DNA from: Methanobacteriota archaeon
Lineage (GTDB): Archaea; Halobacteriota; Bog-38; Methanoflorentales; Methanoflorentaceae
Assembly: GCA_963720465.1 (NCBI GenBank)
Contig: OY970393.1
Span: 992,001 to 1,056,000 of the forward strand
Length of the DNA stretch: 64,000 nt
Reading direction: 5' to 3'
Below are positions 1,612 through 57,811 of this stretch, one piece after another. Below the pieces are notes generated by a model. It saw only the letters and a program-made list of their open reading frames with translations, searched no databases and was not told the DNA's origin. Each line of letters starts with the position of its first letter. Positions within the stretch are counted from its first letter, which is position 1. A program made the translations under genes and the position numbers.

Positions 1612-3846
<2,235 letters not shown>

Positions 3847-31210: not shown

Positions 31211-31213
31211 GAC

Positions 31214-36275: not shown

Positions 36276-36346
36276 GCGCTCTCCTTAGTCGAACAGGGAT
36301 TCTGGCGCTACGTGTGTACGCCGCCTACGCCTTGTCTAAAGCCACG

Positions 36347-37765
36347 CTAGGAAGAGACTGCGGGCACGGGCTCCTCAGCCTTTTTCGCGACGTGTGCCGG
36401 ATGATATTTCTCGATAAGTTTCCTGTCAATTCTGGTCAGTTGCGCTTCCGGCAACGTTGCAAGCAAGTCCCAGCCGAGTTGGAGCGTTTCTTCTATACCG
36501 CGATCTTCCTCGTAACCCTGTCGTACGAATTTATCCTCGAAGATATCTGCAAACTCGAGCAACGTTTTGTCACGATCGGAGAGTGACTCTTTCCCGACGA
36601 TCGCCACAAGCCCGCGCAGATCTTTGCCCTCGGCGTACCCTGCATAAAGCTGGTCCGATACCGCCTTATGGTCTTCACGCGTCTTTCCAACGCCTATGCC
36701 CGAATTCATCAGGCGTGAGAGCGAGGGGAGAACGTTCACTGGCGGATATATGCCCCTCCTGTGCAGTTCACGCGATATCACGAACTGCCCTTCCGTAATA
36801 TACCCCGTAAGGTCAGGAATTGGGTGGGTGATATCGTCGCCAGGCATGGTGAGAATCGGGATTTGCGTAATCGAACCTGTTTTACCGCGGATTCGTCCTG
36901 CGCGTTCATAGATCGACGCAAGGTCGGTGTACATGTATCCTGGGTAGCCTCGCCGGCCCGGCACCTCTTCGCGGGCAGCGCCAATCTGCCGCAGCGCTTC
37001 GCAATAATTTGTCATGTCGGTGAGAATAACGAGCACGTGCATATCGTGTTCGTAGGCGAGGTACTCAGCCGCTGTGAGCGCAAGCCTTGGGGTAATGAGC
37101 CGCTCAATTGCAGGATCATCCGCAAGGTTCAAGAACACGACGGCCCGCTCAAGCGCCCCAGTTCTCTCAAAGTCGTTCATAAAATGTCGCGCTTCTTCTG
37201 CGGTGATGCCCATGGCGACGAAAATGACGGCAAAGGCTTCTTCTGCACCCAATACTTTCGCCTGCCGCGCAATTTGCAGCGCCAAGTCGTTATGGGGGAG
37301 ACCCGATCCCGAGAAAATGGGCAATTTCTGCCCTCGAACGAGGGTATTCATTCCGTCTATCGTGGAAATGCCGGTTTGGATGAATTCAGATGGGTTATCT
37401 CGTGCATAGGGGTTAATCGCCGCGCCCGTTATGTCGAGTCGCTTTTCCGGCACGATTTCTGGACCGCCATCAAGCGGTTCACCTGATCCTGAGAGTATTC
37501 GGCCGAGTATTTCGGTCGAGACCGGCATCTTGATAACTTCACCGGTAAACCGTATTTTCGAGTGTCGGTCAATGCCCGCAGTCGTTTCGAATACTTGAAG
37601 TGCTACCAACTTTTCGGACGTGTCAAGAACCTGTCCTCTTTTCACAGTTCCGTCTGCGAGGATGACGTTGACAAGCTCCATATACCCAACAGGCTCTGTT
37701 TTCTCAACGAAAACGAGGGGCCCCGCAATGGATGTTATTGTTCGATACTCTTTCATTTTCTTCAC
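36347..37765 (-). CDS. atpB: A-type ATP synthase subunit B (operon 2)
   Basis: [31 protein letters not shown]. Confidence 0.98.
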
Positions 37766-37766
37766 C

Positions 37767-39494: not shown

Positions 39495-39796
39495 AAGTCA
39501 ACACCTACAGATCGCTTTATCTTCTCTCGCAAATGCGTGCGTTCTTCTCCGGCGCCGCCAATTGAGATGACGGTCGGTTCGATGGAGTCGTCTAAGGCTA
39601 TGCGCAAAGGCATCGACACCTTTTCCACATCGTCGCTATTCATGATTAATATGCCAATGTCCTCGTCCTTTAAGGCCTCCTTAAGTGTCGGCTCCAAATC
39701 AGCATCGGTAGTGATGAATGTTTTCCGCACGCCGGCCAATAGAAAGCCTGTCACAAAATCAGCGCTGCCAACAACTGCAACTTCCACGCAACTCAC
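39485..39796 (-). CDS. atpF: A-type ATP synthase subunit F (operon 2)
   Basis: [18 protein letters not shown]...[15 protein letters not shown]. Confidence 0.95.
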
Positions 39797-39831
39797 CGCA
39801 TTACAAAACGTTTGCCCTAAACTATATTCTT

Positions 39832-40902
39832 CTATAGTGCCAGATGGTCTTTAATGATTTCTTGCGATAGTCCCGCCTCTTTGCCTCGCACTATCGCTTG
39901 GATGTTGTCCACTTCTGCGTCTTTGCTCAGCATGTACCCCGGCATGGGCAGCACTGTCAACGGATTGAACGTAGAGATCTTCCACACGTGCTCGTTCAAG
40001 TATTTGTCCAGCCTCAGTTCGATCTTGCTCAATGATTCCATTCGCTCTGTGACGAGGTCAGAAATAGCGCTCCAATACCGATATTTGCCCAACAAAGCTA
40101 CAAATTCGTCGAAGGGCACATCAGCCATCTTCTCGATCTCCTTGTCTGAGAGATACAGTCCGCCCGGTATGACATATTCAAGGACGCGCGAGCCTGAAAT
40201 GCCTGCATTTTTCAACCTGAATAATGTTTTTAAGTTGGCGACGTCGATCTCCATTTTAATGACGGTCAAGTACAGCGAAGAGCCGCCTATTCTCGATACG
40301 AGGTCCACCATTCTTGCATAATAGAACTTGTCAAGTTCGTCTTCAACCTTCATCGAAGATTCGGTGTAGCCAATATCTTTGATGACATCATAATAGACGG
40401 TGCCTTTCAATGCAGCGATAACCTCTTCAACACTGGGCTTCCGTACGAGAGTCTGCAGGTACTCGCGCGCTAGCTCGCCACTGGGGACCAGGATCCTCAC
40501 TATCTCCTCATCGGAAGCTCCGTACATTTTTCCTCGCAGTATAGTTTTAATGTTCCAGATGTCCCAGCGTCTGAGATATTCCACGATCAAGTCGTGAGGT
40601 TCGCCCATCGTCATCTCCATGAGCTTGGTGAATGTCCTCGCCAAGTTCAGGTGCGTAGCGAACTCAACTAAATCTATGCCTGAGTACGTGCGCGCCAGTT
40701 CGTCGACTTCAGCTTTGTACTCCGACTCTTCAATAAATCGGGTTATTTCAGGAAGGGCCATGACAAGGAGTTTTGCATAGGTCTCCTTCGGAAAGAGCTT
40801 CACCTTCATTGCGTGCACTCGTGCAGTGCCATAGGCGTATCTCGCTCTGGGCGCAGATCCTGAAGATTTGCCCTTTTTTGGCCGCGTGTACATTGCGCTC
40901 AC
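39832..40902 (-). CDS. atpC: A-type ATP synthase subunit C (operon 2)
   Basis: YAYGTARVHAMK, WDIWNIKTILRGK, EVDNIQAIVRGK. Confidence 0.94.
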   Translation of the reverse strand: MSAMYTRPKKGKSSGSAPRARYAYGTARVHAMKVKLFPKETYAKLLVMALPEITRFIEESEYKAEVDELARTYSGIDLVEFATHLNLARTFTKLMEMTMGEPHDLIVEYLRRWDIWNIKTILRGKMYGASDEEIVRILVPSGELAREYLQTLVRKPSVEEVIAALKGTVYYDVIKDIGYTESSMKVEDELDKFYYARMVDLVSRIGGSSLYLTVIKMEIDVANLKTLFRLKNAGISGSRVLEYVIPGGLYLSDKEIEKMADVPFDEFVALLGKYRYWSAISDLVTERMESLSKIELRLDKYLNEHVWKISTFNPLTVLPMPGYMLSKDAEVDNIQAIVRGKEAGLSQEIIKDHLAL

Positions 40903-41447
40903 ACGTTCAAAATTTCTAAGAGCTGCTTCAAAGACGTCTCACGCACGTTCCTGAGAAGCGTGTCGAAGGTCAGGTCGTGTATGACTGTGCCATCTTCATT
41001 TTCCAAAACTATGCCGCCTGAACAGAGAATCGTGCCACCATATTCCAAGTCGGTGATTCGTCTCACTATGGACTCGTCGCTTTTGTTTGAAAAAATACGC
41101 TTTGAGTCAGTGTGTGATTCGAGCAGCCTCTTGATGAGGGTTTCTCGCTCCGATTCAGAAAGTGCAGCCAGCGATCCCAAGGCTTCGGCATATACGTTGT
41201 CAAGCAGTTGTTTCTTCGCGTTGAGGATCGATCGCTTAACATCAAGATTCGCGCTGGATATTTCTCTGTTTTTTCGACGCTCAATTTGTTGGACTGCCTG
41301 CTCTCGTCTTTCTTCGAGGATCTGACGCGCTGTGTTTTCGGCCCCTCCGATTATGGCATTGGCTTCGTCCGTTCCTTCTTGCCTGATGCGGTTCGCTTCC
41401 TCCTCTCCTCGCGCTAGGACGTCCTTGACGACGACTTCCAAGCCCAT
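40899..41447 (-). CDS. atpE: A-type ATP synthase subunit E (operon 2)
   Basis: MGLEVVVKDV...GGIVLENEDGT...DLTFD. Confidence 0.94.
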   Translation of the reverse strand: MGLEVVVKDVLARGEEEANRIRQEGTDEANAIIGGAENTARQILEERREQAVQQIERRKNREISSANLDVKRSILNAKKQLLDNVYAEALGSLAALSESERETLIKRLLESHTDSKRIFSNKSDESIVRRITDLEYGGTILCSGGIVLENEDGTVIHDLTFDTLLRNVRETSLKQLLEILNV

Positions 41448-41453
41448 AGGTCC

Positions 41454-41693
41454 TCAGATTGTAGGCATAGTCACAAAGAGCAGTATCAAGGCCACGACGA
41501 GCCCGAAAATTACAATAGACTCCGGAATGACGGTCATGACCAGACCCCTCCCGAAGAAGCCTTCGTCTTCAGCCATGACTCCGATGGCTGCCGAACCAAT
41601 GACTTGCTCGCCCAAGGCGGCTGCGATTCCCGTGGCGCCGACCGCTATGGCTGCGGCCAAAGCGACCATACCTCCTCCAATTGGATCTACCAT
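41454..41693 (-). CDS. atpK: A-type ATP synthase proteolipid K/c (operon 2)
   Basis: GEQVIGSAAIGVMAE...FGRGLVMTVIPESIVIFG. Confidence 0.95.
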   Translation of the reverse strand: MVDPIGGGMVALAAAIAVGATGIAAALGEQVIGSAAIGVMAEDEGFFGRGLVMTVIPESIVIFGLVVALILLFVTMPTI

Positions 41694-43607
41694 TTATTGT
41701 TCCTCCGTATATTTTCTCTTAAAACCAAACGGCCTATATTTCGTTCCGCCTCCACTATAGAACTTCGTGAAGAACTCCACGTAGTGCAATCTCAAGGATT
41801 GCAAGCCTGAATCCAAAATGCCGAGCGCAGTATTCACCGCGTGGCCAACGATTAGCATTAGCACTCCCAAAATGACGAAAACCCCGCCCCGGGAGAAGAA
41901 GAGCGCATATGACAGCTTATTTACTGCAAGAGCGATACCGGCCGAAGAAATGCCTATCGAGAGCAATCGCGAATAAGAGAGCACATTAGACAGAAGCGTC
42001 GGAAGCTCAGCGATGCCGATGATGCCTTCACCCATTATCAAGAATATGAAGCCTACTACGGCGACTGCCAAGCCGGCCAACAACGGGGGAGATATGCTGA
42101 TAGCAGTTCCCGACGTAAGAGGCGGCAAGATCTGAATGATCACGAGTACCCCACCCCACAGCAGAAGAAGCCAGCTTACTTTCGCGAATACGGCGTGCTT
42201 CAGCCCGTGCTGTCGATATTCGTTGACAAATCCGAGTACATACCCGAGCGTGAGCATGAGGATGCCAATAACTAAGGTAACCAGAAGCAACGTGAGAACG
42301 TTCTCAAAACGGGGAATAGTCGGATAAGCGTAAGAGGACAGAATCAAACCGCTTTTCCCAACTAGCTCGACGCCGAAGAACTCATTGTAGATAAGTCCGA
42401 ACACGAGCGATAATACCCCTGCATAGACCAGGATCTTGGCCAAATCGCGAATGCCTTTCGATTTCAGCATTCGCATCACCAACAAGCCTATTACGATAAT
42501 CACGACTCCGTACCCAATATCTCCCAGCATCAGGGCGAAGAGAAAAGGATAAATCAGAGCGACAAACGTCGTTGGGTCGATCTCGTTGTACTTCGGAAGT
42601 GAAAAGGCCCTCACAAGCACCTCAAAAGGTTCTGAAGGCATCGGGTTTTCGAGTGCTATGGGAACTTTTTCTGGGCTGACTACCTCCGATGCATCAGTGG
42701 CCACCATGACGTGACCTTCAGTCGCGCGATCGACGTCGCTTTGGACGCGTTCAAGCTTCTTTGTGGGAATCCAGCCCTCAACGATGAATGCGTTCTTCGT
42801 CGTGGCGAATCGCAGCGGAGCTTCAGCCTTTTGTGTTGCTACCGAGAGGTACTCGTCTGAAGCGAGAATGTAATCGATGTATTTTTCCCGGAGCGCGTTT
42901 AGATCCTTCTGGCTCTCTTCTTTTTCGGATTCAAGTTCGGTACGCTGTGCATCGAGATTTACGAGTATGTCCTTCGGGGTGCCCTCCATTTCAGGGAGCG
43001 AAAGCGCTGAATAGTTCTGGTCTTGCAAGCGTTTCAGAACATCGTCCTCAAATGCCCTAGGCACAAAAAGGGCGATGGCGTGCCCCCTGCCATAGGGCAC
43101 AGTTTCGAGCTCATAGTCATTGGTGATATCGCTGATCGCAGGCGACCCTTTCAGTGTCCCGACAAACACCGTTAACGAGCGATAGCCGCCATACAGATCG
43201 AGTGGCAGGTCAAAGCTCTTCAGAGGGTCGAGCAATCGCTTTTTGTCGTTGATGTCTTTGATGCGCGAATCGATATCGCTTATCTTGTGTGTTACTTGCG
43301 TAAGGTCAAAATTAAGGCGCTCCGTTTTCTCATCGATCTCATCGGAAATAGCGCCTTCAGGGTACTTACTTTGAATGTCCTCTTTGCCTGTGATGTGGAG
43401 ATAACTCGCTATAGAGCGCAGGGATACGGCCCGCTCTGAGAGCTTGGTGGCGCTAGCGTACGGCGTGCCGATCTTGAAGTCTTCATCTTCATCAACGAAG
43501 TCGGTAATGTGGACAACATTATGCTTATGCAGGACATCTATCGCGACGCCCATATAGTCTTTCGATCCGGCAATGATGACCTTCGTCATCGCTTGCGGCT
43601 CAAACAT
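41694..43607 (-). CDS. atpI: A-type ATP synthase subunit I (operon 2)
   Basis: MLGDIGYG, LSYSRLL, LRLHYVEFFTKFY; ATG at 43607. Confidence 0.96.
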   Translation of the reverse strand: MFEPQAMTKVIIAGSKDYMGVAIDVLHKHNVVHITDFVDEDEDFKIGTPYASATKLSERAVSLRSIASYLHITGKEDIQSKYPEGAISDEIDEKTERLNFDLTQVTHKISDIDSRIKDINDKKRLLDPLKSFDLPLDLYGGYRSLTVFVGTLKGSPAISDITNDYELETVPYGRGHAIALFVPRAFEDDVLKRLQDQNYSALSLPEMEGTPKDILVNLDAQRTELESEKEESQKDLNALREKYIDYILASDEYLSVATQKAEAPLRFATTKNAFIVEGWIPTKKLERVQSDVDRATEGHVMVATDASEVVSPEKVPIALENPMPSEPFEVLVRAFSLPKYNEIDPTTFVALIYPFLFALMLGDIGYGVVIIVIGLLVMRMLKSKGIRDLAKILVYAGVLSLVFGLIYNEFFGVELVGKSGLILSSYAYPTIPRFENVLTLLLVTLVIGILMLTLGYVLGFVNEYRQHGLKHAVFAKVSWLLLLWGGVLVIIQILPPLTSGTAISISPPLLAGLAVAVVGFIFLIMGEGIIGIAELPTLLSNVLSYSRLLSIGISSAGIALAVNKLSYALFFSRGGVFVILGVLMLIVGHAVNTALGILDSGLQSLRLHYVEFFTKFYSGGGTKYRPFGFKRKYTEEQ

Positions 43608-43923
43608 AGTGCGTCCTCTTGAACTCCTCAACCAAATACGAGAGCGCTTCAGCGTGCTTTTTCTCGGCGCGCTCTTTGATTCTTAAAATATCTGCTTCTC
43701 CGGTCTTATGGATTGCTTGCTTAGCTGTGCTTATGTCTGCATCGGCAGTCGCGTTCAAATCGTCTGCTATCTTGCTTGCTTTTTTCTCTGACGCATCAAT
43801 TATCTCAAACGATCTCTTTTTTGCATCTTCGATTGTTTGTTCTTTTTGAGTCTGAGCTTCATCGATCATTCGCTGGGCTTCCGCTTCAGCAGCCTTGATC
43901 TCTAATAATATATCTGACTTCAT
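43600..43923 (-). CDS. atpH: A-type ATP synthase subunit H (operon 2)
   Basis: ILLEIKAAEAEAQRMIDEA coiled coil; first gene of the operon. Confidence 0.9.
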   Translation of the reverse strand: MKSDILLEIKAAEAEAQRMIDEAQTQKEQTIEDAKKRSFEIIDASEKKASKIADDLNATADADISTAKQAIHKTGEADILRIKERAEKKHAEALSYLVEEFKRTHYV

Positions 43924-44041: not shown

Positions 44042-44824
44042 CTACGCTTTCAAATAGTCTTCAGCGTACACGTCTTTGTTCAGCAGCACGTCGCACGTTT
44101 TTATGGTGTCCAATAGCTCTCGATCCTCGGTGTTTATGATTGCTGATGATAATCCCGCGCCCATCAGCATTGCCAGAAATGTCCGTTCAATTAATCGCGG
44201 ATTCTTTGTATCGTGCGAGATGTTGTTTAGGCCGATAGTCGTCTTTAGCGCTGACGTGGGGCTCGTGAGGAGGCCAATTTTTCGAACCGCTTCGACGACG
44301 ATCGGCGCTTGATCTTGCGCCGTACTCACGGGCAAACAAACAGGGTCGACGAACAGCTTGTCGACTTCGATGCCGTACTCACACGCGTTTGCGACAAGTG
44401 TCGCGGCCTGTTCCACTCGCTTATCGACGTCGCCAAGAATAAACTTCTCGTCCATCGTCATGCATATAATTTCTGAATCGTGCTCCGCGGCCAATGGAAA
44501 AAGCGTCGCCATCTTCTCCTGCTCAGCGGGGATCGAATTGATCATCGACTTTCCTTTGACGTCGTCAATACCGGCTTTCATCACGTCGATTTTAGGAGTG
44601 TCGATGGAAAGCGTTACGTCAATCACATCTTGCACAGTCGCTACCAGCCATTTCATCATCTCAGTGGCATCGCTTCTGGCAAGCCCCGCGTTGAGGTCGA
44701 TGATTTGCGCCCCGGCGTCGACTTGCCGAATTGCAAGTTCCTGAACAGCTTTCGTATCTCGTCGATCGATTATCGCTTCAACCGACTTTGAGTAGCCGTT
44801 GATGTTGCCGCCAATGACTATCAT
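44042..44824 (-). CDS. acsE: methyl-pterin:corrinoid iron-sulfur protein methyltransferase (AcsE/MeTr, pterin-binding TIM barrel)
   Basis: MIVIGGNING, QVDAGAQIIDLNAG, LSIDT, MINS, VDP, GLNNIS, RTFLAMLMGAGLSSAI; real start at 44824. Confidence 0.88.
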   Translation of the reverse strand: MIVIGGNINGYSKSVEAIIDRRDTKAVQELAIRQVDAGAQIIDLNAGLARSDATEMMKWLVATVQDVIDVTLSIDTPKIDVMKAGIDDVKGKSMINSIPAEQEKMATLFPLAAEHDSEIICMTMDEKFILGDVDKRVEQAATLVANACEYGIEVDKLFVDPVCLPVSTAQDQAPIVVEAVRKIGLLTSPTSALKTTIGLNNISHDTKNPRLIERTFLAMLMGAGLSSAIINTEDRELLDTIKTCDVLLNKDVYAEDYLKA

Positions 44825-44984
44825 AGACAACTCCCCCGCTAAAGTGCAAGTGATTAGGTGCGCGTAACGCTTTAACGCTTTCGCATGAGCGCGCACGACG
44901 CTACCCACCTCGCAACCTATATATAAAAATATAGTATATAAAGACACGTCAATTTTGAACACAATGTGAGGCTTTTGGGGCAAT

Positions 44985-46856
44985 TTGAAGAAAGAATTCA
45001 AGGTTGTTTTTAAACCTGACAACAAGACTGTCAAGGTTGAACGAGGCACGACTGTTCTTGACACAGCTACGAGCTCCGACATTTACATCGATAGCATCTG
45101 CGGAGGCCGAGGCAAGTGCGGCAAGTGTAAGGTCCTCATCGAGGGGAACGTCCATAGCGACGAGACTGACCTGATAACCACTGAAGAAAAAGCAGGCGGC
45201 TACTTTTTGGCGTGTTTGGCTCGAGTCACAGGCAATTTGAAAGTGACCGTGCCCAAAGAGAGTAGGGTGGAATCACACCAAATACTCATGAAAAGCGTGA
45301 CCACGCCTCTGCCAGCGATTGACCCCCCCGTGCTCAAGGTCCCGCTTTCTCTGACTCCCCCATCACTAGCCGACTACGTGAGCGACCTCGATAGAGTCAC
45401 GCACGCGCTGCGCAATCTTGACATAGGGCACGTCACGATCGGGCTGCCCACATTGAAGAGACTAAGCAGAGTGCTTCGAGAGAACCAATGGAACGTGAAC
45501 GTCACGCTGATGGACCTCTGGGACAGAAAAGAGATCATCGATATCGGTGCTCCTTCAGATAACGACTTGATCGGAATCGCAGTGGACATAGGTACTACGA
45601 CGATCGTCGTCGAGTTAGTGGACTTAACAACTGGCAGGGTGATTGACGCTCGCTCTGACTATAACAAGCAAGTCGTGTACGGTGAAGACGTCCTTTCCCG
45701 AGTGATGTACACCGAGGAGCACGAAGATGGCATTAGCAAACTGACAAGTACCATCAGGTATGGTATCAATGACCTCATACGAGAGCTCGTTATCGAAAAT
45801 AACGTGCGCTATGAAAGAATTTGCCGAGTGGTTCTTTCAGGCAATACCGTTATGATGCACCTTTTTTATGGGCTGGATCCCAAGTACATACGCCACGAGC
45901 CTTACATACCGGTGATGTCCATCGTCCCCCAGATGAAGGCGGTGAAGCTCGACCTGAGCGTCAACCCCAACGCCTATATTTATGCGCTTCCGTGCCGGAG
46001 CAGCTACGTCGGCGGCGACGTCACAGCTGACATAATCGCGTCTGGGATGAACGACAATGCGGACATCTCATTACTAATCGACGTTGGCACCAACGGCGAG
46101 GTCGTGTTGGGAAACGATACGTTCCTCGTGTCGTGTTCGTGTTCAGCCGGTCCGGCCTTTGAAGGCGGAGAAGTCGAGTTCGGCGTCCGAGCAATGAACG
46201 GCGCAATTGAGCGCGTGTGGATCAACGACGGTCTGGTGGAGTACTCGACCATCGGCAACGAAAAGCCAAAGGGCATTTGCGGGTCGGGTCTTATCGAACT
46301 CATCGCAGAGCTCTTCAGTAATGGCGTGATTGACCGAACGGGGAAGATTCAGCTAGACAAGAACAACGTCAGAACCGAGGTCGGAAGCAACGGCAACCAG
46401 TTCGTCGTGGCGTACAAAGAGGACACAGCCATTGACAAGAACATAGTCATGACCGACGTTGACATTCAAAACATACTGCGGACAAAGGCCGCGGTCTACG
46501 CGAGCTGTAGTGTGCTGCTCAAAACCTTTGGCTACAAATTTAGCGACCTGAGCAATGTCTTCATCGCAGGGAGCTTCGGCAACTACCTTGACACCAAGAA
46601 AGCGATTACGATTGGATTGCTTCCTGACCTACCCCTCGATACGTTCAAGTTCATTGGCAATGGGGCCCTTGGCGGAGCGCGAATGGTGTTGCTCTCGCGG
46701 AACCTGCAAGACAAAGCAGCAGAGATCGTCGAAAATATGACACACATAGAGCTGAGCGTCAGCAGCATGTTCTTCAAAGAGTTTACCTCAGCCCTTTTCA
46801 TTCCGCACACAGAACTTGATCAGTTTCCCCACATTGCCACACGAGTCTACACGTAG
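44985..46856 (+). CDS. acsV: reductive activator of corrinoid protein (RACo/AcsV; 2Fe-2S + ASKHA)
   Basis: CGGRGKCGKC...LAC, AVDIGTTT, IDVGTNGE, SAGPAFEG, GICGSG. Confidence 0.92.
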   Translation: MKKEFKVVFKPDNKTVKVERGTTVLDTATSSDIYIDSICGGRGKCGKCKVLIEGNVHSDETDLITTEEKAGGYFLACLARVTGNLKVTVPKESRVESHQILMKSVTTPLPAIDPPVLKVPLSLTPPSLADYVSDLDRVTHALRNLDIGHVTIGLPTLKRLSRVLRENQWNVNVTLMDLWDRKEIIDIGAPSDNDLIGIAVDIGTTTIVVELVDLTTGRVIDARSDYNKQVVYGEDVLSRVMYTEEHEDGISKLTSTIRYGINDLIRELVIENNVRYERICRVVLSGNTVMMHLFYGLDPKYIRHEPYIPVMSIVPQMKAVKLDLSVNPNAYIYALPCRSSYVGGDVTADIIASGMNDNADISLLIDVGTNGEVVLGNDTFLVSCSCSAGPAFEGGEVEFGVRAMNGAIERVWINDGLVEYSTIGNEKPKGICGSGLIELIAELFSNGVIDRTGKIQLDKNNVRTEVGSNGNQFVVAYKEDTAIDKNIVMTDVDIQNILRTKAAVYASCSVLLKTFGYKFSDLSNVFIAGSFGNYLDTKKAITIGLLPDLPLDTFKFIGNGALGGARMVLLSRNLQDKAAEIVENMTHIELSVSSMFFKEFTSALFIPHTELDQFPHIATRVYT

Positions 46857-47048
46857 TTGGCGTATCCTTTTCACCTGATACACCTTTTGCCAGATGCGTG
46901 CCCGCCCTCGATCACTGATTACGCGAGACGGCCGCTTGCCGGTCGCCCAATGATGCGATAAATCGCAAGAGTGACCTGTATTTAAGTAGAAGAGCAGCGT
47001 AGGCATAGGCGACGGGGGTTTCCGCACACAGCGTTACGGAGAAACAGC

Positions 47049-47795
47049 GTGCAAACCATTGCGATAACTGGTAAAGGCGGAACCGGCAAAACGACTTTTG
47101 CTTCGCTCCTTATAAAACACTTGAGCAATGAAAGCGTCACCGTTTTGGCTGTCGATGCAGATCCGAACTCAAACTTGGACGCGCGACTCGGAATGCACGT
47201 CGACCAAACGATTGGCGACTTGCGAGAGGATCTGCTCAAAGAGTCATTTCCCGCGGGGGTTGCCAAGAGCGAACTTATTGAGTATCAGATACGCTTGGCT
47301 CTCGTTGAAGGAGACACGTTCGACCTTATCGCGATGGGACGGCCTGAAGGGCCTGGATGCTACTGCTACATCAACAACGTGTTGCGAGATGTCCTCGACA
47401 GGCTCTCCGTCAATTACGATTACGTTGTCATCGACAACGAAGCGGGTATGGAACACCTGTCACGACGCACGACTAGAGATGTTGACGTGCTGTTTATCAT
47501 GAGCGACGTGACCGTGCTAGGCATAATCACCGCCAGTCGGATCAAGAAGCTCTCTGAGAGCCTCAATCTTGTCGTAGGAAAAACGTATTTGGTGCTGAAC
47601 GAAGTCGAGAACGCCATACCGGAAAGCATCAAGGACCAGATACGGCAACAGGAATTAGACCTCATCGGCGCTATCCCAAAAGATGCCTTAGTTGGAGAGT
47701 ATGCTTTGGAAGGAAAATCTCTGTTTGAACTGCCTCGTGATTCGGCAGCGTTTAAAGCAGCTAGCGCGATTGCTGAGCACTCGATAACTCCGTGA
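47049..47795 (+). CDS. cooC: Ni-insertion ATPase CooC/AcsF
   Basis: GKGGTGKTT, VDADPNSNL, GPGCYC, DNEAGMEHLSR. Confidence 0.93.
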   Translation: MQTIAITGKGGTGKTTFASLLIKHLSNESVTVLAVDADPNSNLDARLGMHVDQTIGDLREDLLKESFPAGVAKSELIEYQIRLALVEGDTFDLIAMGRPEGPGCYCYINNVLRDVLDRLSVNYDYVVIDNEAGMEHLSRRTTRDVDVLFIMSDVTVLGIITASRIKKLSESLNLVVGKTYLVLNEVENAIPESIKDQIRQQELDLIGAIPKDALVGEYALEGKSLFELPRDSAAFKAASAIAEHSITP

Positions 47796-47797
47796 AC

Positions 47798-49132
47798 CTA
47801 TCCGTTTGCAAGCTCTTTCAAATACTTTGGCAGTGCAGACGAATCTTTGACACCGACGATGACTTCCCAGCCCGTGAGCTCCTCGAGTTTCATCTTCAGC
47901 ATGGCGATCATGCCGGGAATTATAAGCTTTCGGTGATCCACCTTTTCTGCGACCTTGTACTCCTTAAGCGCCTGTGCGATTGTCTCTGGCGTAAACTTGT
48001 CAGCGGCGAATGCGGTCATCACCGACAGGCCTTCGGTATCGACCACAAGAAGGCGCGCAGGGACTTTGCTCGCTTCAACATCGCTTGCGACGGTGAAATA
48101 TGTGAGGGAGAAATTTGACGTGACGATGACTGGCGAGTTCCGGTTGGGCTTTCCAATATCATAGAGACCTGGATTGACCTGTATGAGCGCCTGGGGATCT
48201 GTGAAGATGTTAGTCCTCAGCGTCGTAAGGGGGTATAACCGCGCGGCATCGAGGTCACCAAAGATAATCAGCGACGCGTATTTCAACGTTCCTATCGCGG
48301 CCCTTATCGCTTGCGTTTCGACGTCCGTCCCGTTGTCCAAGTTTAGCATGACCGGATAGCCCAGGGGCCGGAAAAGCTTCTTGACACTGAGTCGACGCAA
48401 GATGGTGAGCCATTCCAATGCATCGCGTAATGGCTTGGCACCGAGATTTAGATCTAACACGATGTCATCGACGCCTTCGCTTGTTGCTATTTCAGATAGC
48501 GACACAAGCTCATCGACGTCGTCTGAGTAGAGCGCGAGCGGGCACGCGTACTGCCGCGCGAGTTTTGCAAGTGCCGCGCAGTTGTTCGCATTACCGGCGT
48601 AAATCAACGGTTTGGCCTTCGATACGACCTTAAGCCCCACTTCAACGATTTGAGGGTCATGGCTCATCAAAACGAACGGCAATCCGCTGTTTTCTTTCAC
48701 GAGCGTCACCACTTCAGAGAACCGCTGTGCATCCCCTTTCGATTCGACCGCGATCAAGTCCACGCCTGAGATGGTGCCAATCCGCTCGTATTTCATCGCA
48801 TCGAGCTTCTTGGCCCGTTCCACAATGCTTTCGTTGTCGCTGTCGTCTTCGATTACCACCGCATATGCCGTCTGGTTGAAGAACTTCTTCTCGTGTCTGA
48901 ATAGCTCGGTTTCGCCTCCGATTTCTACGTCACCAACGGTGACGGTGCGCATAGGCGGCGAAGCGGAACTCTCGAGTTGTTGCACCACTTCGGGTGACAC
49001 ATATGGACATTTCGTGAGCTCTGTCTGCTTGTTCGCCAGCATCATAGCAAACGCCAGGCACGTGGGCACTCCGCATTCGCCGCAATTCTTTTTGGCTAGG
49101 AGTTTGAATATATCGAGCGCAGTCATCGGCAT
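47798..49132 (-). CDS. acsC: corrinoid iron-sulfur protein large subunit (gamma)
   Basis: NCGECGVPTCLAFA...CPY, RHEKKFFN, TSNFSLTYF, GLSVMTAFAADKF. Confidence 0.95.
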   Translation of the reverse strand: MPMTALDIFKLLAKKNCGECGVPTCLAFAMMLANKQTELTKCPYVSPEVVQQLESSASPPMRTVTVGDVEIGGETELFRHEKKFFNQTAYAVVIEDDSDNESIVERAKKLDAMKYERIGTISGVDLIAVESKGDAQRFSEVVTLVKENSGLPFVLMSHDPQIVEVGLKVVSKAKPLIYAGNANNCAALAKLARQYACPLALYSDDVDELVSLSEIATSEGVDDIVLDLNLGAKPLRDALEWLTILRRLSVKKLFRPLGYPVMLNLDNGTDVETQAIRAAIGTLKYASLIIFGDLDAARLYPLTTLRTNIFTDPQALIQVNPGLYDIGKPNRNSPVIVTSNFSLTYFTVASDVEASKVPARLLVVDTEGLSVMTAFAADKFTPETIAQALKEYKVAEKVDHRKLIIPGMIAMLKMKLEELTGWEVIVGVKDSSALPKYLKELANG

Positions 49133-49137
49133 GGTCG

Positions 49138-50082
49138 TTATCCTGTCAATTCATCGACAACTTTTCTCGTGATCGCTACAGACTTCGGGTGTCGGAGTAT
49201 TAACGCGTTCGCGCCGGCCATTAAAGCCGCCAACGCAGACGCCACCTCCCAAAAGATCGCCCGTTCTCTCTCGTCGCCCAGCTTAGCGTCAACGCGATAG
49301 GCTTCCTTCGCGCCCCACGCCACGCTTATGTCAGCGATCATCGGAGATTGGAGCATCTTATCTCCCACGAGACCGGCGAGTTTAATCCGTTCCATCGCGG
49401 AATAAGCGTATTCCATCCCAAAACCAATTCCAGCCATAAGCGGGTCACTGACGATATGGTCGACTGGCACGCCAAACTCGGTGAGCATGATATTGAGCTG
49501 TTTAGCGATATTCACGTCGATGTTTGAGAACGCGACGACATCGTGGCCGTTGGCGGTCGCCGCAACGGCGATCGATTTGTAACCGTCCTGTTCCGCGCGG
49601 GAGAGCAAACACCGTTCTCCTTTGGCGGCGTCGCCGCAGAGTTCCATGACGCGGGCGTCTTTGTCATAGTCGCCACTTCCCTGTATTACGAGCGGTGCCT
49701 TCACCTGCGCGAGCACGGCCGACACGAGGGAGGCCGCATCTTCAGCGCTGACGTTTGCTTCCTCTGGATTCGTGCTCAGCAGCTTCAGACAGATGAAGTC
49801 TGCGCCATAGACATCAACGCACGCACGCGCCCACGCAACGGGATCCTTGATGACGTCGCCGATTTCATCAATGATGATGTGGGGGTAGTCATCGCCAACA
49901 TGATCGATCACTTCCATTCCGATCGCCGGTCGCGAAACCTTGCCTTCGAACGCCAAAAACGGAAGAGTCGTCTCTCCGCCTAAAAGGAGTTTTCTATCCC
50001 TCGTTCCGCCTTCCTCACCAGTAGCCCCGAATGCAATCTCCTTTATCTTTCCACTCCAACTTTCCTTTGGAATTGTTACCAT
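49138..50082 (-). CDS. acsD: corrinoid iron-sulfur protein small subunit (delta)
   Basis: GGETTLPFL, DVNIAKQLN, GMEYAYSAMERIKLAGL, ILRHP; ~314 aa (short, bacterial-like length); ATG at 50082. Confidence 0.94.
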   Translation of the reverse strand: MVTIPKESWSGKIKEIAFGATGEEGGTRDRKLLLGGETTLPFLAFEGKVSRPAIGMEVIDHVGDDYPHIIIDEIGDVIKDPVAWARACVDVYGADFICLKLLSTNPEEANVSAEDAASLVSAVLAQVKAPLVIQGSGDYDKDARVMELCGDAAKGERCLLSRAEQDGYKSIAVAATANGHDVVAFSNIDVNIAKQLNIMLTEFGVPVDHIVSDPLMAGIGFGMEYAYSAMERIKLAGLVGDKMLQSPMIADISVAWGAKEAYRVDAKLGDERERAIFWEVASALAALMAGANALILRHPKSVAITRKVVDELTG

Positions 50083-50116
50083 CGCCGTAACCACCGAGCT
50101 TCTCACGACGGCGCGT

Positions 50117-53100
50117 TTAAAACATGCCCATCGGCGACATGCGCAGCGCCGGGTGATCGACCTTCGCCAAGTACTGCGCTAGTTCATCCGCATCCGTCGT
50201 AATAGTTTCGTCGGCGATCTTGTCCACCAGATCCGGCAAGCCCAGTTCCTTTGCCCTTTTTTCAAGATCTTCTCGTAGCGCGGCTTTCAGGTCTTTCGGC
50301 ATCCAAACGACGCGCGCTAGCCCTCCATCCGCACGGATAAACTTCTTACTCGTAATGAACTGCCTGCCGACACCAATGAATCCGGGCGTTTGATTGCCCC
50401 CACCGACAGACCCGGCGAGCGTTGAGAACTTCATGCCGATCGGAGTCATTCCCGTGTACTCGCGGTTGACGACGATCACGCCCTGCAAATCACTGTTAAT
50501 CGCCACGATACACTCGAAACATCCACACGACGTCTGCGGATCCTCCATCATAGTGTACTGATTCATCCGCTCGATGTGGCCGTGGGTGAGCTCGCGGACC
50601 GCTTGGTTTACGTTTAACCATTGGCCTTTCTCCTCATCAATCACGGCGCCCTTCTCAACAGGCTTATTTGGCCCGTTTGGATCGATACTATACCCCGCCG
50701 CTGCATCTAGCCAGTTCAGTGCACCACACAGCCCAAGGCGTTCCGGAGAGATGATGCATACGTGGCTCGGGGCGAAGCTCTGACACAACGTGCACGAGTA
50801 GAACGCATCAACGCTCTCGTCCGTCAGCCCTGCAATCCGCCGATCCCGCTGTGCGTAAGCTTCCATAGCCTCTGGCAGATGCTTCTCCACCTCCTTCTCG
50901 TCGGTCATGATGGTGACTTGTATCCGGCTGATAATACCGCCGAGTTCTTCTTTCATCTTGTGGTAAAGGATGTCTCCGAAGTGCTTGAGGCGGAGCCCGT
51001 TGGCCACACTGTTCTTGCTTAGCCGCACCCAGATCAAGTTTCTCTGACCTGTATGCCACGCGCCTTCCGCATAGTTGATGAACTGATGAATGCGCCGCTC
51101 GACGACGGGCTCAAACTCGCTTTTCATGTGCTTTCCATACACTTCAACAAGAATCCCCAGCGCGGACACGCTCCCTTCTTCCATCTCGTCAACGTCCTTG
51201 CCGATGAGCGTGATCTGACCGTCCTTAACAGCATCAGCGTCGCGAATCTTGACGAGCTCAAAGACCTTTGTCTTTGTCGGGCCTCCACACTCGAGGTAGG
51301 TCTGCGGCTTACGCACCGTTTCACCCTCGAAGGCTAGCCCGTAGGCGACCGGCAATGAAACTTCGCCGACCGTGACCTTCATGTTCCGTATCTCTATCGC
51401 GTGTGCGACGATCTGATTGTAATCCTTCTCCACCTCATATTTGCCCGGCACTTCCTCCACGTCTTGATCAGTGATCGTCGGTGAACCATTGAACAGCACG
51501 GCGAACTCAATCGCTGCCTTAATGTCATCAATAGGGCCTAACTGGACGACGACGACTTTTGGCCTTTTTGCCAGGTAATCGGAGAGACCTTCCCTGTCGC
51601 CTGGCTTGACGTTCCCGAAGGTCAGCGCGGCGCGGATTGCAAAGCTCAACGCGTGAATTGCCTGCGTGAATTCGCCTACGCAAAACAGCAGCCGGTCAAG
51701 CCCCTTGTGTTCGCCAATCTCAATGCCGGCCTCGCTAATCTGCTGTATAGTATCAAAGGTAGGAATCACTAACATGCCCTTACTTTGACAATCTCTGATG
51801 ATCTTCGCAAGCAGTTTTGGGTCTCTCGCCTTCCCCACCAACACGAGGACCCCCGGTATGGTATCATCGACGAACGAGATCCCCAACTTTCGCAGCACCT
51901 CGTCAGCGACGAACCCCGTGTACGGAGTGGCCGCGTATGGGTCAGGATTGTCGATGTACTTGAGGGCTTCAACGATTTCTGCAGCGATCATCGTCGCTTC
52001 GCCCGAAGCCACCGCGTTGTCAAACGTGTACTCCTCCCGTATCTTTCCCCTCACCTCTCCGAGGAGCCGCGGCAGCTGTGCGAGTTTCGTCACTCGTTCT
52101 CCTGTCCACGCGGTTATACAAGGAAGGTAATACCCGGTGCTCGGGTATCCTATCTCCTTATCGCGACCGTACTGACGTATCGCCTTGTTCAGCAGCTGGT
52201 CTGCATACCCTGTCGCGATGATAGCCCCGTCAATCCCCTTTTTATATAGATCCTCATTCGAGAGCGCAGGTGCCTCCACCGACGGCGTGGATCCGTTCCA
52301 GTACGTGACCTCGCCGTCTAGTTCACTGTGCGTGTCCATCTTCCATCTGCGGTATTGGATGGTGTTTACCAGCGTCTTCGCGGCGACCGTCGGATCGGGC
52401 TCAAATATAAAGTGACCGCCGTAGACGTCTTGTGCTGTCGCCTGAGCGACTTCATCCGCAAGAGGGCTCCCCTTGATGAACGGGTACACTCCGACGTGCG
52501 TGGGCCATCCGGTTGCCACGCACCACGTCCCGATCGCCACCGCCTTTTCGCTCATGGCTTCGGGCGCGCTCGCGACGATGGGGAGGTCCTGTATGTCGAC
52601 GCCCATTGCCTGCGCGAGTTCGCTGACGAGGTTTTCCACGCGCGAGTTGTCCACGCAGGACCCCATATGAAGGACGAGCGGTAGCGATTGGCCAATGGTT
52701 TTTTCCCCGACGTCTTTGAGAAACGCCTTGAGAGATTCGCCAGCGTACTCGTCGACTGCCTCTGGCGTCAACAAGCCGTGCTTCGCGAGAGATTGAGCCG
52801 CACAACCGGTCACAAGCGTTAGGATGTTATTTTTGACCAGTTCCTTGGCGATAGTCAAATGACAGAGGTCGTGTTCAGCTTTCGCGGGATTGTTGCACCC
52901 CGCGATAAGTGCGATGCCTTGGACATCTCCGCTGCGAATCTTTTCGGCCAGATGCTTAAGCGGTTCTTTTTCGTTAAAGCTGCTCAGTAACGATTTTATG
53001 TACTCGAGACTAAAGCCTGCAACGACCTTGCTCGAAATGTCAGGAATGAATATTTTGGTTGGATCTCTGTTATTGTATGCTTCAATTGCGACGCGCACGA

Positions 53101-54250
53101 TCTCTTTGGCGCCTTCGCGCGCCGCCGCTTCGTTGAATTCGATGTGCGTATCGCCGGGGATGCGGGTAATCGGCATCGTTGATATCAACTTCGTGTGGAA
53201 ACACTGCGTCCAGAATCCCACCGATGGCGCGATACATTGATAATCGATGACCATCACGTCGACGACGCCTGTCATTATCGCCAATTCTTGACTCGCGAAA
53301 TTTGTGACGAGCGGAATACCTCTGCGCATCAACAGTTCGTTACCAGTGCAACAAATGCCGACGATATTAATCCCTTTCGCGCCAGCGGCTATGGCCTCGC
53401 CTTGCAGCTCGTCAGCAGCGTCGCAGATGACTTCGCTCAGTATGGGATTGTGCCCGTGCACACAGACGTTCACGCAGTCCTGCTTTAACGCTCCAAGATT
53501 AGCCTCTGAAACCACCATCTGCGGCGCGCCAAACAAGACGTCTGAGATGTTTGAGCTTATGTTTTCGCCCGTGACATCGCCGAGTGAGCACTTGATCCCC
53601 CCGAATATTAACGGCACCGGATCAGCGTCGCACCCCATGTGCGTTCTGTGCATCACTTCCGTGATCCCTCTATCAATGTTGGTAGCGATTACGTCATTTC
53701 GCTCAAGGAGTTCCAACCTCTTTGGGGGGAGCATGATCTTGAGCCAGCTACACGCCTGGTCATCGTTCCGTGAAAAGTCCTCCAAAGCGGCATTCGCCAC
53801 CGCCACCGCAAGTTCACTTATGCTTTTCTCGTTCTCCAGACCGAGCTTTGCGGCAAGTGCGCGCAGTTTCGCCTCATCTTTTATGCGATAGTCGGGTGCC
53901 TGACCCTCGCCGACCGCTTTAAGCGCGGACGCCAAGTGCCGTCCGTGGTCAGAGTGGGCTGCACAGCCTCCTGCCATCATCCGAATCAGATTACGCGCCA
54001 CAATTGTGTAATCTTTCGCCCCACAGATTCCTCTTTGTGGCTCTTTTCCGAAAGGATTGATCCGACAAGGTCCCTGCAAACAGATCCGGCAGCATAGACC
54101 GGACTCACCGAAGCCACACTGAGGCTGCATGGTTTCAGCCCTATCCCACATCGTTTGCATATGGTCCCGCTCTGCACGTGGCAGCATCTCGAGCGCCGCA
54201 GGGTCCACAGTTACAGCTTTTGTATTTCCTTTGTTACGTCTCTTGTCCAT
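50117..54250 (-). CDS. cooS-acsB: fused anaerobic CO dehydrogenase (CooS/AcsA) - acetyl-CoA synthase (AcsB)
   Basis: One frame, ~1377 aa from ATG 54250. CODH motifs CGFGESGLCCRICLQGPC, HGHNP, GICCTGNE, DYQC, GCNN, TGC, GSCVD, SEKA; ACS motifs CTLCQSFAPSHVC, LCGA, TSCGCFE. Confidence 0.95.
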   Translation of the reverse strand: MDKRRNKGNTKAVTVDPAALEMLPRAERDHMQTMWDRAETMQPQCGFGESGLCCRICLQGPCRINPFGKEPQRGICGAKDYTIVARNLIRMMAGGCAAHSDHGRHLASALKAVGEGQAPDYRIKDEAKLRALAAKLGLENEKSISELAVAVANAALEDFSRNDDQACSWLKIMLPPKRLELLERNDVIATNIDRGITEVMHRTHMGCDADPVPLIFGGIKCSLGDVTGENISSNISDVLFGAPQMVVSEANLGALKQDCVNVCVHGHNPILSEVICDAADELQGEAIAAGAKGINIVGICCTGNELLMRRGIPLVTNFASQELAIMTGVVDVMVIDYQCIAPSVGFWTQCFHTKLISTMPITRIPGDTHIEFNEAAAREGAKEIVRVAIEAYNNRDPTKIFIPDISSKVVAGFSLEYIKSLLSSFNEKEPLKHLAEKIRSGDVQGIALIAGCNNPAKAEHDLCHLTIAKELVKNNILTLVTGCAAQSLAKHGLLTPEAVDEYAGESLKAFLKDVGEKTIGQSLPLVLHMGSCVDNSRVENLVSELAQAMGVDIQDLPIVASAPEAMSEKAVAIGTWCVATGWPTHVGVYPFIKGSPLADEVAQATAQDVYGGHFIFEPDPTVAAKTLVNTIQYRRWKMDTHSELDGEVTYWNGSTPSVEAPALSNEDLYKKGIDGAIIATGYADQLLNKAIRQYGRDKEIGYPSTGYYLPCITAWTGERVTKLAQLPRLLGEVRGKIREEYTFDNAVASGEATMIAAEIVEALKYIDNPDPYAATPYTGFVADEVLRKLGISFVDDTIPGVLVLVGKARDPKLLAKIIRDCQSKGMLVIPTFDTIQQISEAGIEIGEHKGLDRLLFCVGEFTQAIHALSFAIRAALTFGNVKPGDREGLSDYLAKRPKVVVVQLGPIDDIKAAIEFAVLFNGSPTITDQDVEEVPGKYEVEKDYNQIVAHAIEIRNMKVTVGEVSLPVAYGLAFEGETVRKPQTYLECGGPTKTKVFELVKIRDADAVKDGQITLIGKDVDEMEEGSVSALGILVEVYGKHMKSEFEPVVERRIHQFINYAEGAWHTGQRNLIWVRLSKNSVANGLRLKHFGDILYHKMKEELGGIISRIQVTIMTDEKEVEKHLPEAMEAYAQRDRRIAGLTDESVDAFYSCTLCQSFAPSHVCIISPERLGLCGALNWLDAAAGYSIDPNGPNKPVEKGAVIDEEKGQWLNVNQAVRELTHGHIERMNQYTMMEDPQTSCGCFECIVAINSDLQGVIVVNREYTGMTPIGMKFSTLAGSVGGGNQTPGFIGVGRQFITSKKFIRADGGLARVVWMPKDLKAALREDLEKRAKELGLPDLVDKIADETITTDADELAQYLAKVDHPALRMSPMGMF

Positions 54251-54662
54251 ATACCAATGCACCACACTTGCACGCAAGAACGCACGACAACTCCGCTGCG
54301 CCATCGCATAGATCGCACTTAACCGCTTTGCGATCGCGCGTCAATACCGCCCCAAACGGGCACGCATCAATACACGCGAAACAGCCGGTGCAGCGCTCGT
54401 CGTCAATCGTCACCACGCCCGCTTCACTTTTTACGATCGCACCCGCTTCACACACTTCGATACACTTCGGCCGCTTACAGTGCAGACATCGTGTGAGATG
54501 TAGCTTGCCGTCTTTGTATCCGATGGTAAGCCTCGAGATCGGGGAAGGGTGTTCCGACATCGCAGTGTTAATGTCGCCTGACTGGCTATGGCGCAGGGCA
54601 CACGCAAGCTCGCACGTCTTACACGCTACACAGTTCTTCGGAACAAACCTAGCGATCAACAT
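54234..54662 (-). CDS. cooF: CooF-like 4Fe-4S ferredoxin
   Basis: CVACKTCELAC, CLHCKRPKCIEVC, CTGCFACIDACP, KCDLC...CVLAC; overlaps the cooS start. Confidence 0.9.
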   Translation of the reverse strand: MLIARFVPKNCVACKTCELACALRHSQSGDINTAMSEHPSPISRLTIGYKDGKLHLTRCLHCKRPKCIEVCEAGAIVKSEAGVVTIDDERCTGCFACIDACPFGAVLTRDRKAVKCDLCDGAAELSCVLACKCGALVYGQET

Positions 54663-57614: not shown

Positions 57615-57689
57615 GGGGTAGTAGGGTAGCTTGGTCCATCCTCGAGCGTTTGGGACGCTTGGACGGCAGTTCGAATCTGCCCTACCCCA
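57615..57689 (+). tRNA. tRNA-Pro(TGG)
   Basis: Acceptor GGGGTAG/CTACCCC, anticodon arm GAGCG-TTTGGGA-CGCTT, T-loop GTTCGAATC. Confidence 0.95.
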
Positions 57690-57736: not shown

Positions 57737-57811
57737 GGACTCGTTGCCTAGTCAGGATAGGGCACCGGCCTCCTAAGCCGGCGGTCGAGGGTTCAAATCC
57801 CTCCGGGTCCG
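57737..57811 (+). tRNA. tRNA-Arg(CCT)
   Basis: Acceptor GGACTCG/CGGGTCC, anticodon arm CCGGC-CTCCTAA-GCCGG, T-loop GTTCAAATC. Confidence 0.95.

Follow-up and report, generated by a model that had tools for sequence, protein, structure and literature searches.

A bacterial-type CODH/ACS cluster with a predicted CooS–AcsB fusion in a tetrahydromethanopterin-dependent peat methanogen

[quoted passage not shown] From a listing of open reading frames (ORFs) and profile scans with Pfam and NCBIfam, we identified seven intact genes, each matching its expected family: acsE, RACo, cooC, acsC, acsD, cooS-acsB, and cooF. This is the full set, at the same coordinates, that a preliminary description of the window had named in proposing a bacterial-type system transferred into an archaeon.

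The largest gene (50117–54250, minus strand) would encode a protein of 1377 amino acids in which CooS (AcsA) and AcsB are joined. The long ORF as called spans 50117–54304 on the minus strand (1395 amino acids), and we place the start at 54250 because the homologues measure 1377 amino acids. On the longer frame, TIGR01702 matches residues 33–656 with 730 bits (cut-off 478), and NF040764 matches residues 691–1392 with 953 bits, covering positions 1–704 of its 705. The Pfam matches are PF03063 (Prismane/CooS), PF18537 (AcsB N-domain, 100.8 bits), PF03598 (CdhC), and PF19436 (ACS_CODH_B_C), which together give a layout of a Ni-CODH domain, a linker of ~30 residues, and a full-length bacterial-type ACS with its N-terminal domain. 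The cdhA profile TIGR00314 reaches 59 bits on the window against a cut-off of 781. In an alignment of 12 fused proteins, the Cys and His columns expected for the CODH/ACS metal clusters are invariant; we take these columns to belong to the B, C, D, and A clusters.

A search of 5.8 billion proteins returned the same architecture almost throughout: among the 120 best homologues, 119 contain the complete set of four domains in ~1300–1434 amino acids, and all 11 homologues with an organism name among the matches listed are archaeal. Two homologues, P0067 and P0115, extend to ~1895 amino acids and also contain intein and LAGLIDADG domains (PF14528, PF14890). A scan of species-representative genomes confirmed at least 598 loci, and we compared the best 80 of these, 24 archaeal and 56 bacterial. 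CooS and AcsB share one ORF in 16 of the 24 archaeal loci and in none of the bacterial loci, which keep acsA and acsB adjacent but separate (56/56). No archaeal locus has two separate ORFs, the other eight showing one half (contig ends, breaks, and AcsB-only forms). We conclude that cooS-acsB is, as predicted from these reading frames, a true single-polypeptide fusion, a feature that the preliminary description had overlooked. Four Methanomassiliicoccales loci (L076, L079, L081, and L082) have AcsB ORFs of 979–998 amino acids whose N-terminal ~300 residues give no Prismane/CODH match, and L063 and L083 encode AcsB alone (720–750 amino acids); the CODH half seems to have been degraded or lost in loci of this Methanomassiliicoccales type. 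Four Chloroflexota loci (L034, L040, L043, and L047) show a different fusion, with AcsB and AcsD matches in one ORF of 1223–1336 amino acids.

The fusion belongs to a set of four genes on the minus strand. At its head stands a gene for a CooF-like 2x[4Fe-4S] ferredoxin (54234–54662, 142 amino acids, with Fer4 family matches), the end of which shares 17 nucleotides with the start of the fusion. Homologues of cooF lie directly upstream of the fusion in L011–L014 and L018 as well as in the Thermoplasmatota loci L015, L016, L023, and L057. Downstream follow the two subunits of the corrinoid iron–sulfur protein (CoFeSP). The small subunit, AcsD (49138–50106, 322 amino acids), has the short bacterial form and scores 367.5 bits with the 313-residue profile NF003376 (cut-off 280), and the large subunit, AcsC/CdhE (47798–49132, 444 amino acids), matches PF03599, PF04060, and NF003195 (519.6 bits) and bears an N-terminal [4Fe-4S] motif.

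Two genes are read from the plus strand. The cooC/acsF-type gene for a Ni-insertion ATPase (47049–47795, 248 amino acids) is convergent with acsC across a gap of 2 bp; its product matches CbiA/AAA_31 and contains the P-loop GKGGTGKT and a CYC motif, and its position and strand are identical in the Thermoplasmatota loci L020 and L059. RACo/AcsV (44985–46856, 623 amino acids), which reactivates the corrinoid protein by ATP-dependent reduction, matches all four of its domains (Fer2, RACo_linker, Raco_middle, and RACo_C_ter), with an NF040756 score of 625 bits that falls under the profile cut-off of 800.

The remaining gene, acsE (44042–44824, minus strand, 260 amino acids), encodes a pterin:corrinoid methyltransferase of the AcsE type with a Pterin_bind match and is divergent from RACo across an AT-rich spacer of 160 bp (44825–44984), a candidate promoter region with TATA-like runs (…CCTATATATAAAAATATAGTATATAAAGA…). 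The longest ORF (44042–45082, minus strand) implies an N-terminal extension of 86 amino acids, which we rejected as an ORF-calling artefact, the stop-to-stop frames of relatives being only ~273 amino acids long. Residues 1–259 align to residues 1–257 of the methyltransferase MeTr (PDB 1f6y, E 1.9e-60), and 2e7f also aligns end to end (E about 1e-60). The short frames of close relatives, together with this end-to-end alignment, place the true start at 44824. With 254 bits for NF005719 (cut-off 259) and 157 bits for NF040758 (cut-off 370), both under their cut-offs, AcsE is a divergent member of the MeTr family. The cluster is thus split over both strands, as had been described, and the orientation of the genes and their AT-rich, TATA-like spacers suggest three transcription units, namely cooF-fusion-acsD-acsC, RACo, and acsE; cooC, 192 bp past RACo, possibly has its own promoter.

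The cluster sits in a conserved chromosomal setting. Family scans identify A-type ATPase subunits H, I, E, and C on one side and SAMP1, a ModE-like gene, and MoeA on the other, in line with the archaeal ATP synthase and SAMP/moeA flanks reported earlier. The host genome is closed (one contig of 2,313,764 bases), and the GC content is continuous at the cluster borders, at 0.50–0.55 across the cluster vs 0.49–0.55 in the flanks. The cluster and its AhaH/AhaI and SAMP1/ModE/MoeA flanks are kept together in L011, L014, and L018 of the same genus and in L013 of a second genus. A chimeric contig is ruled out by the single-contig genome, the even GC content, and the recurrence of the same cluster and flanks in these four independent relatives of two genera. 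Neither the ATPase flank nor the SAMP1-ModE-MoeA flank was seen in any of the compared Thermoplasmatota loci.

Within the genus, the ratio of nonsynonymous to synonymous substitution rates (dN/dS) is 0.06–0.15 for all seven genes (0.07 for the fusion, 0.07–0.14 for cooF, and 0.08–0.09 for acsE), which equals or falls below the values of the flanking AhaI (0.14–0.17) and MoeA (0.19–0.28); the cluster genes are under purifying selection. Synonymous divergence (dS) in acsE is 0.58–0.68, compared with 0.15–0.35 in the rest of the cluster (44985–54662) and 0.56–1.13 in the adjacent ATPase gene. This resemblance of acsE to the ATPase gene may point to a boundary of recombination between RACo and acsE. 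Among the 22 public runs listed as containing some of the window, 18 are RNA libraries of peat or wetland samples, and in all four RNA runs examined, from four studies, contigs span 43.7–56.9 kb with 92–96% likeness. Because these are assembled contigs of relatives and not reads of this strain, they support transcription of the cluster only weakly. No RNA contig covers the ATPase flank at 39.8–43.7 kb, which is uninformative on flank expression, as the cluster served to select the runs and the contigs derive from relatives.

To define the metabolic context, we searched the whole host genome in six frames with hidden Markov models, with controls that were positive every time in the reference genomes where a match was expected. 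The genome contains mcrA, mch, mer, and two copies of mtrH, and fhs, folD, and metF have no match anywhere in it. This combination identifies the host as a methanogen with a tetrahydromethanopterin (H4MPT) methyl branch and no folate branch. The best cdhA match in the genome, at 34 bits (cut-off 781), is the CooS domain itself, and cdhB (PF02552) has no match, so that the absence of cdhA and cdhB noted in the window extends to the whole genome. The host's class in GTDB comprises 24 genomes in one family with two genera. The host probably belongs to the peat lineage Bog-38 (Ca. Methanoflorentaceae). Excerpts from three papers equate the single-family peat methanogen lineage Bog-38 with Ca. Methanoflorens/Rice Cluster II, and an excerpt from one report describes Bog-38 as an obligate hydrogenotroph (10.1101/2025.08.21.671631).

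The same pattern holds across the class. A cdhA match over the cut-off occurs in 0 of 24 class genomes, whereas in a phylum sample of 301 genomes it occurs in 160, with 0 of 23 for the host's own family. Bacterial-style AcsB is matched in 22 of the 24 class genomes, 16 of them over the cut-off, and the two genomes without a match are 61% and 86% complete. The AcsB N-domain is present in 21 of the 301 phylum genomes, 20 of this class and one, G083, in which it belongs to an archaeal CdhC. That protein (L111; G083:C10, 3535–5751; 739 amino acids) has an N-terminal PF18537 match, is encoded beside a true cdhA, and groups with archaeal CdhC in the tree. The PF18537 control search was also positive in M. 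jannaschii; given these two cases, the domain is not a clean bacterial marker. The preliminary description had left it between replacement and supplementation of the native acetyl-CoA decarbonylase/synthase (ACDS, CdhABCDE). Since the cluster is the only CODH/ACS in the genome, and with cdhA over the cut-off in none of the class genomes, the former stands and the latter does not: native CdhABCDE was replaced before the class's two genera split.

Every component of the bacterial CODH/ACS of the Moorella thermoacetica/Carboxydothermus hydrogenoformans type is also found here, and the hallmarks previously taken as bacterial are all present: a CooS/AcsA-type CODH without CdhA or CdhB, an AcsB of ~700 amino acids with an N-terminal CODH-docking domain (a domain not exclusive to bacteria), a short AcsD (322 amino acids) without the archaeal extension, and a separate, if divergent, AcsE/MeTr. 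AcsB, AcsC, and AcsD also branch apart from archaeal Cdh proteins. The cluster differs from the bacterial system in that one 1377-residue ORF takes the place of separate AcsA and AcsB subunits (alpha2beta2), and in that the folate genes Fhs, FolD, and MetF, through which bacteria supply methyl-tetrahydrofolate, are absent. Archaeal ACDS has homologous cores (CdhC/AcsB, CdhE/AcsC, and CdhD/AcsD), the same overall chemistry, and presumably the same role in a hydrogenotrophic methanogen, the synthesis of acetyl-CoA from CO2 and methyl-H4MPT. However, the window cluster has neither a CdhA with an extra Fe–S domain, nor CdhB, nor a long, AcsE-independent CdhD, and it includes a separate AcsE, for which ACDS has no need according to an excerpt of PMC13370988.

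The closest relatives of the cluster are archaeal. Identity to the window in the fusion halves is 66–70% for the Thermoplasmatota loci L015, L016, and L023 and 51–67% for other Thermoplasmatota and Methanomassiliicoccales (accessory genes, 43–53%), falling to 46–52% for Bacillota and 36–44% for Chloroflexota and Desulfobacterota; CdhC, CdhD, and CdhE of the same phylum are 33–44% identical. Fused clusters related to Thermoplasmatota and Methanomassiliicoccales share the ~1377-residue ORF at 57–70% identity, with acsD-acsC downstream. In L015, L016, L023, and L057 cooF lies upstream, as in the window, and in L020 and L059 cooC-RACo is inverted and followed by acsE. These last two match the window in both order and strands (fusion, acsD, acsC; cooC and RACo inverted; acsE) at 43–64% identity, whereas in the loci L024, L086, and L087 of Bacillota a single strand carries all the genes. 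The shared split-strand layout implies that the arrangement arrived with the cluster and predates its arrival; the proposal that the cluster had been resident long enough to be rearranged therefore fails.

The AcsB tree (56 rows, quick search under a site-heterogeneous model, CdhC outgroup) recovers a bacterial-type clade (support 100) that includes an archaeal fused clade of 20 rows (100), to which the window cluster belongs and which is known mainly through relatives of Methanomassiliicoccales, as sister to Bacillota (95). Within the archaeal clade, L015, L016, and L023 of Thermoplasmatota form the sister group of the class (93), and a repeat with 49 rows agrees. A concatenated tree of CooS, AcsB, AcsD, and AcsC (31 rows, LG+G4) unites the class with L015, L016, and L023 at 100, nested among other Thermoplasmatota, and in an approximately unbiased (AU) test, a tree constrained to unite the 10 Thermoplasmatota rows is worse by 58.8 log-likelihood units and is rejected (p-AU 0.00018). 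In the AcsC and AcsD trees, the split from CdhE and CdhD (100 and 99) leaves the archaeal clade (98) on the bacterial side, with AcsD grouping with Thermoplasmatota (98) apart from archaeal CdhD (99). AcsB, AcsC, and AcsD are thus split from CdhC, CdhE, and CdhD of the same phylum (100, 100, and 99), and none falls within archaeal Cdh, a placement that would have contradicted the preliminary description. In the AcsE tree, the class and L020/L059 (97) are sister to Bacillota (84); root support in the CooC tree is 45.

These relationships refine the earlier proposal of inter-domain transfer, of which the bacterial-type architecture stands; a direct transfer into this lineage is unlikely, the class nesting within Thermoplasmatota versions that share the fusion. 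That proposal, in which a bacterium such as a Bacillota acetogen passed the cluster directly to the methanogen lineage with local rearrangement afterward, draws on the bacterial architecture of the cluster and on the Bacillota, the nearest bacterial relatives, which both the AcsB tree and the AcsE tree place beside the archaeal clade as its sister. We nevertheless regard it as very improbable, given that the Thermoplasmatota fusion is far closer (66–70%), that Thermoplasmatota share both the fusion, seen in 0 of 56 bacterial loci, and the exact split-strand order, and that the class nests within Thermoplasmatota, whose monophyly is rejected (p 0.00018). The last step into the class was most probably from archaeon to archaeon, out of Thermoplasmatota (Methanomassiliicoccales-related) diversity, as judged from these trees and gene orders. 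The fused clade as a whole is of bacterial type and probably of bacterial origin ultimately.

The step between archaea might also be read in the opposite direction, from the class to the L015/L016/L023 group, or both groups might have drawn on an unsampled third archaeal lineage. Within the archaeal clade the trees are unrooted apart from the outgroup, sister status gives no direction, and CooF upstream of the fusion is common only to these two groups. On the other hand, a reverse transfer needs an extra event, because the remaining 7–13 Thermoplasmatota rows branch outside the pair; the fused form is more diverse in Thermoplasmatota; and it is there that the matching folate branch, for which AcsE is built, is found. 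These scenarios appear distinctly unlikely to us, and acquisition from within Thermoplasmatota remains our preferred reading.

Acquisition of this kind would have changed the metabolic setting of the cluster. Among the nearest relatives, only the chromosome of L023 (G301) is complete; fhs is present and mch absent, whereas the class chromosomes of L013 and L018 show the reverse, mch without fhs. This opposition indicates that the cluster moved from a folate context into a cell with H4MPT only. The folate-based L023 chromosome encodes a canonical AcsE with the folate-type residue pattern, 49% identical, ~10 kb from fhs and outside the ACS cluster, in contrast to the window host, an H4MPT methanogen with mcrA.

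According to excerpts of PMC13370988, bacterial CoFeSP requires AcsE for its methyl group, archaeal CoFeSP transfers the methyl unaided, and archaeal CdhD has an N-terminal extension. The short AcsD encoded in the window, taken with the need of bacterial CoFeSP for AcsE, makes AcsE the obvious candidate for the link to H4MPT. With fhs, folD, and metF absent and mch, mer, and mtr present, the methyl donor would have to be methyl-H4MPT; AcsE would then not be using methyl-folate in a host that has the H4MPT methyl branch only.

Among the 5.8 billion proteins searched, the nearest AcsE from outside the class is only 49% identical, and source databases label the class protein 'dihydropteroate synthase' or '5-methyltetrahydrofolate … methyltransferase'. 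We aligned 93 sequences, 33 from the class and 60 others (37 from bacterial loci, 2 from Thermoplasmatota loci, and 21 database clusters), leaving out two fragments of <240 amino acids, matches with <80% coverage, and the frameshifted L011, and numbered positions as in MeTr by way of L024. Five positions separate the two sets: position 6 is G in 33/33 class sequences and E in 59/59 others, position 122 is M in 33/33 and L in 60/60, position 130 is L in 32/33 and P in 60/60, position 207 is P in 33/33 and R in 57/60, and position 211 is E in 33/33 and N in 57/60. The window protein carries G6, M122, L130, P207, and E211, which sets it apart from the bacterial system. Position 198, S in 60/60 others, is not fixed in the class (N in 20, S in 13). 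The residues D75, N96, D160, and N199 are invariant in 93/93; we take the first three to bind the pterin ring and N199 to be catalytic. A pterin-binding and methyl-transfer core that seems to have been kept while the periphery changed fits what is expected for a switch of one-carbon (C1) carrier, and we somewhat favor the idea that the AcsE homologue has been re-tuned to take its methyl group from methyl-H4MPT.

An unlikely but more serious alternative than those above is that AcsE is not the H4MPT link at all, the corrinoid being methylated through a duplicated MtrH or by a self-methylating AcsCD, with AcsE in another role or a mere passenger. The two mtrH copies (L116 and L117; G000:C1:529706–530596 and 531695–532585) are 87% identical. 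One ends the mtr operon and the other lies outside it, 1.1 kb downstream, beside a putative cyclase gene and a DUF2098 gene; no corrinoid protein gene is found among the neighbors of the extra copy. With such neighbors, a dedicated link between MtrH and CoFeSP is unsupported. This alternative can also appeal to the self-methylation of archaeal CoFeSP (described in the excerpted part of PMC13370988) and to the standing of acsE as a transcription unit of its own, with a dS of 0.58–0.68 vs 0.15–0.35 in the rest of the cluster. It fits less well with AcsD, here the short bacterial form, or with the grouping of AcsC and AcsD with folate-context relatives, and the extra MtrH is without an adjoining corrinoid partner. 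In addition, acsE occupies the same place in both genera with a dN/dS of 0.08–0.09, and the catalytic and pterin residues are retained while five otherwise invariant ones have changed. We therefore continue to prefer AcsE as the link.

The working of the cluster can be proposed on this basis. Electrons from reduced ferredoxin would pass through CooF to the CODH domain, where CO2 would be reduced to CO, and, with CODH covalently fused to full-length AcsB, the CO would reach the A-cluster without leaving the polypeptide. Co(I)-CoFeSP (AcsCD) would receive its methyl group by way of AcsE from methyl-H4MPT, which the methanogenic methyl branch supplies, and ACS would combine the methyl group, CO, and CoA into acetyl-CoA for biosynthesis; RACo would re-reduce inactive Co(II), and CooC would load Ni. 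The result would be a hybrid Wood–Ljungdahl pathway with an archaeal methyl branch and a bacterial-style carbonyl branch, mainly for autotrophic acetyl-CoA. The direction of the reaction and the route of the electrons are inferred, and anabolic synthesis of acetyl-CoA from CO2 and methyl-H4MPT is the most likely function.

A catabolic role, either CO oxidation through CooS/CooF for energy or cleavage of acetyl-CoA in acetoclastic or acetate-oxidizing metabolism, could be imagined from the position of CooF beside a CooS-type CODH, as in CO-oxidizing modules, and from the reversibility of the CODH/ACS reactions (stated in an excerpt of PMC13370988). We hold it to be improbable. The monofunctional Coo module pairs CooS-CooF with an Ech-type hydrogenase, whereas in the window CooF is present but CODH is covalently tied to ACS, and no hydrogenase or other Coo-type partner gene occurs among the annotated ORFs of the flanks, nor any hydrogenase gene among those of the window. 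The lineage is described as obligately hydrogenotrophic in the excerpt cited above (10.1101/2025.08.21.671631), and a hydrogenotroph with no other ACS would need the enzyme for autotrophy.

Taken as a whole, we think it quite probable that the cluster is the sole CODH/ACS of a hydrogenotrophic H4MPT methanogen, with a bacterial architecture, acquired via Thermoplasmatota and serving anabolic acetyl-CoA synthesis. Several observations weigh against this account. The trees all come from quick searches and have SH-aLRT values as their sole measure of support, and bacteria were sampled through the best 80 loci out of at least 598 confirmed. The Thermoplasmatota group that entered the AU test was named after the tree had been seen, in the trees of AcsC and AcsD the archaeal clade is sister to the sampled bacteria as a whole (87 and 84) and does not adjoin Bacillota, and the AcsB tree does not reject bacterial monophyly (p-AU 0.256). 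For AcsE, both archaeal groups have long stems (0.78 and 0.71), so that fast evolution of this protein is not unique to the class, and the second MtrH, which shares 87% identity with the operon copy, might in principle be the enzyme that methylates a corrinoid. The RNA evidence consists of assembled contigs of relatives, with DNA carry-over possible.

The remainder of the window holds further features of note. Two A/V-type ATPase operons, both complete, are arranged tail to tail (26739–34362, plus strand; 35634–43923, minus strand). Their catalytic A subunits (31214–32953 vs 37767–39494) are only 60% identical, and the plus-strand operon lies in lower GC (0.49–0.50); the pair could reflect two ion specificities or a foreign origin of one operon. 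At 1612–3807 (minus strand) a 731-residue, two-domain, KatG-like catalase-peroxidase is encoded in a patch with a GC content of 0.62, well above its surroundings, and is possibly an acquired oxygen-defense gene in a strict anaerobe. Two tRNA genes (57615–57689 and 57737–57811, both plus strand) lie just past moeA.

In a literature search, we found nothing tying this lineage to a bacterial-type CODH/ACS and no CooS–AcsB fusion; supplements lay outside the search, and a prior mention is possible. Adam, Borrel and Gribaldo (PNAS 2018) are said to have discussed bacterial-type CODH/ACS in some archaea. The apparently new points are the covalent joining of CooS to AcsB, the step between archaea, and the mismatch between H4MPT and AcsE with its five fixed substitutions, part of which may already be in print.

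The archaeal pathway (H4MPT and Cdh) and the bacterial pathway (folate and Acs) are usually viewed as two separate packages. We give about even chances to the full proposal, a hybrid pathway in a peat methanogen in which the H4MPT branch is joined to a fused CODH–ACS from a folate-using archaeon and linked to it by an AcsE switched through E6G, L122M, P130L, R207P, and N211E. If true, this would be a natural, datable switch of pterin cofactor in a C1 enzyme, and the substitutions in AcsE would offer a short, testable list of residues for a change of C1 carrier in a pterin methyltransferase. A natural covalent CODH–ACS fusion is also of interest to the design of CO2-fixing enzymes. The lineage is one of the most abundant methanogens of northern peatlands, and reads of cooS, acsB, and acsE commonly serve to mark bacterial acetogens; part of these reads may, in bogs and fens, stem from this methanogen. 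The halves of these 'domain-specific' pathways would, if the proposal is true, be interchangeable, with the carbonyl half of one package joined to the methyl half of the other across a whole class of methanogens.

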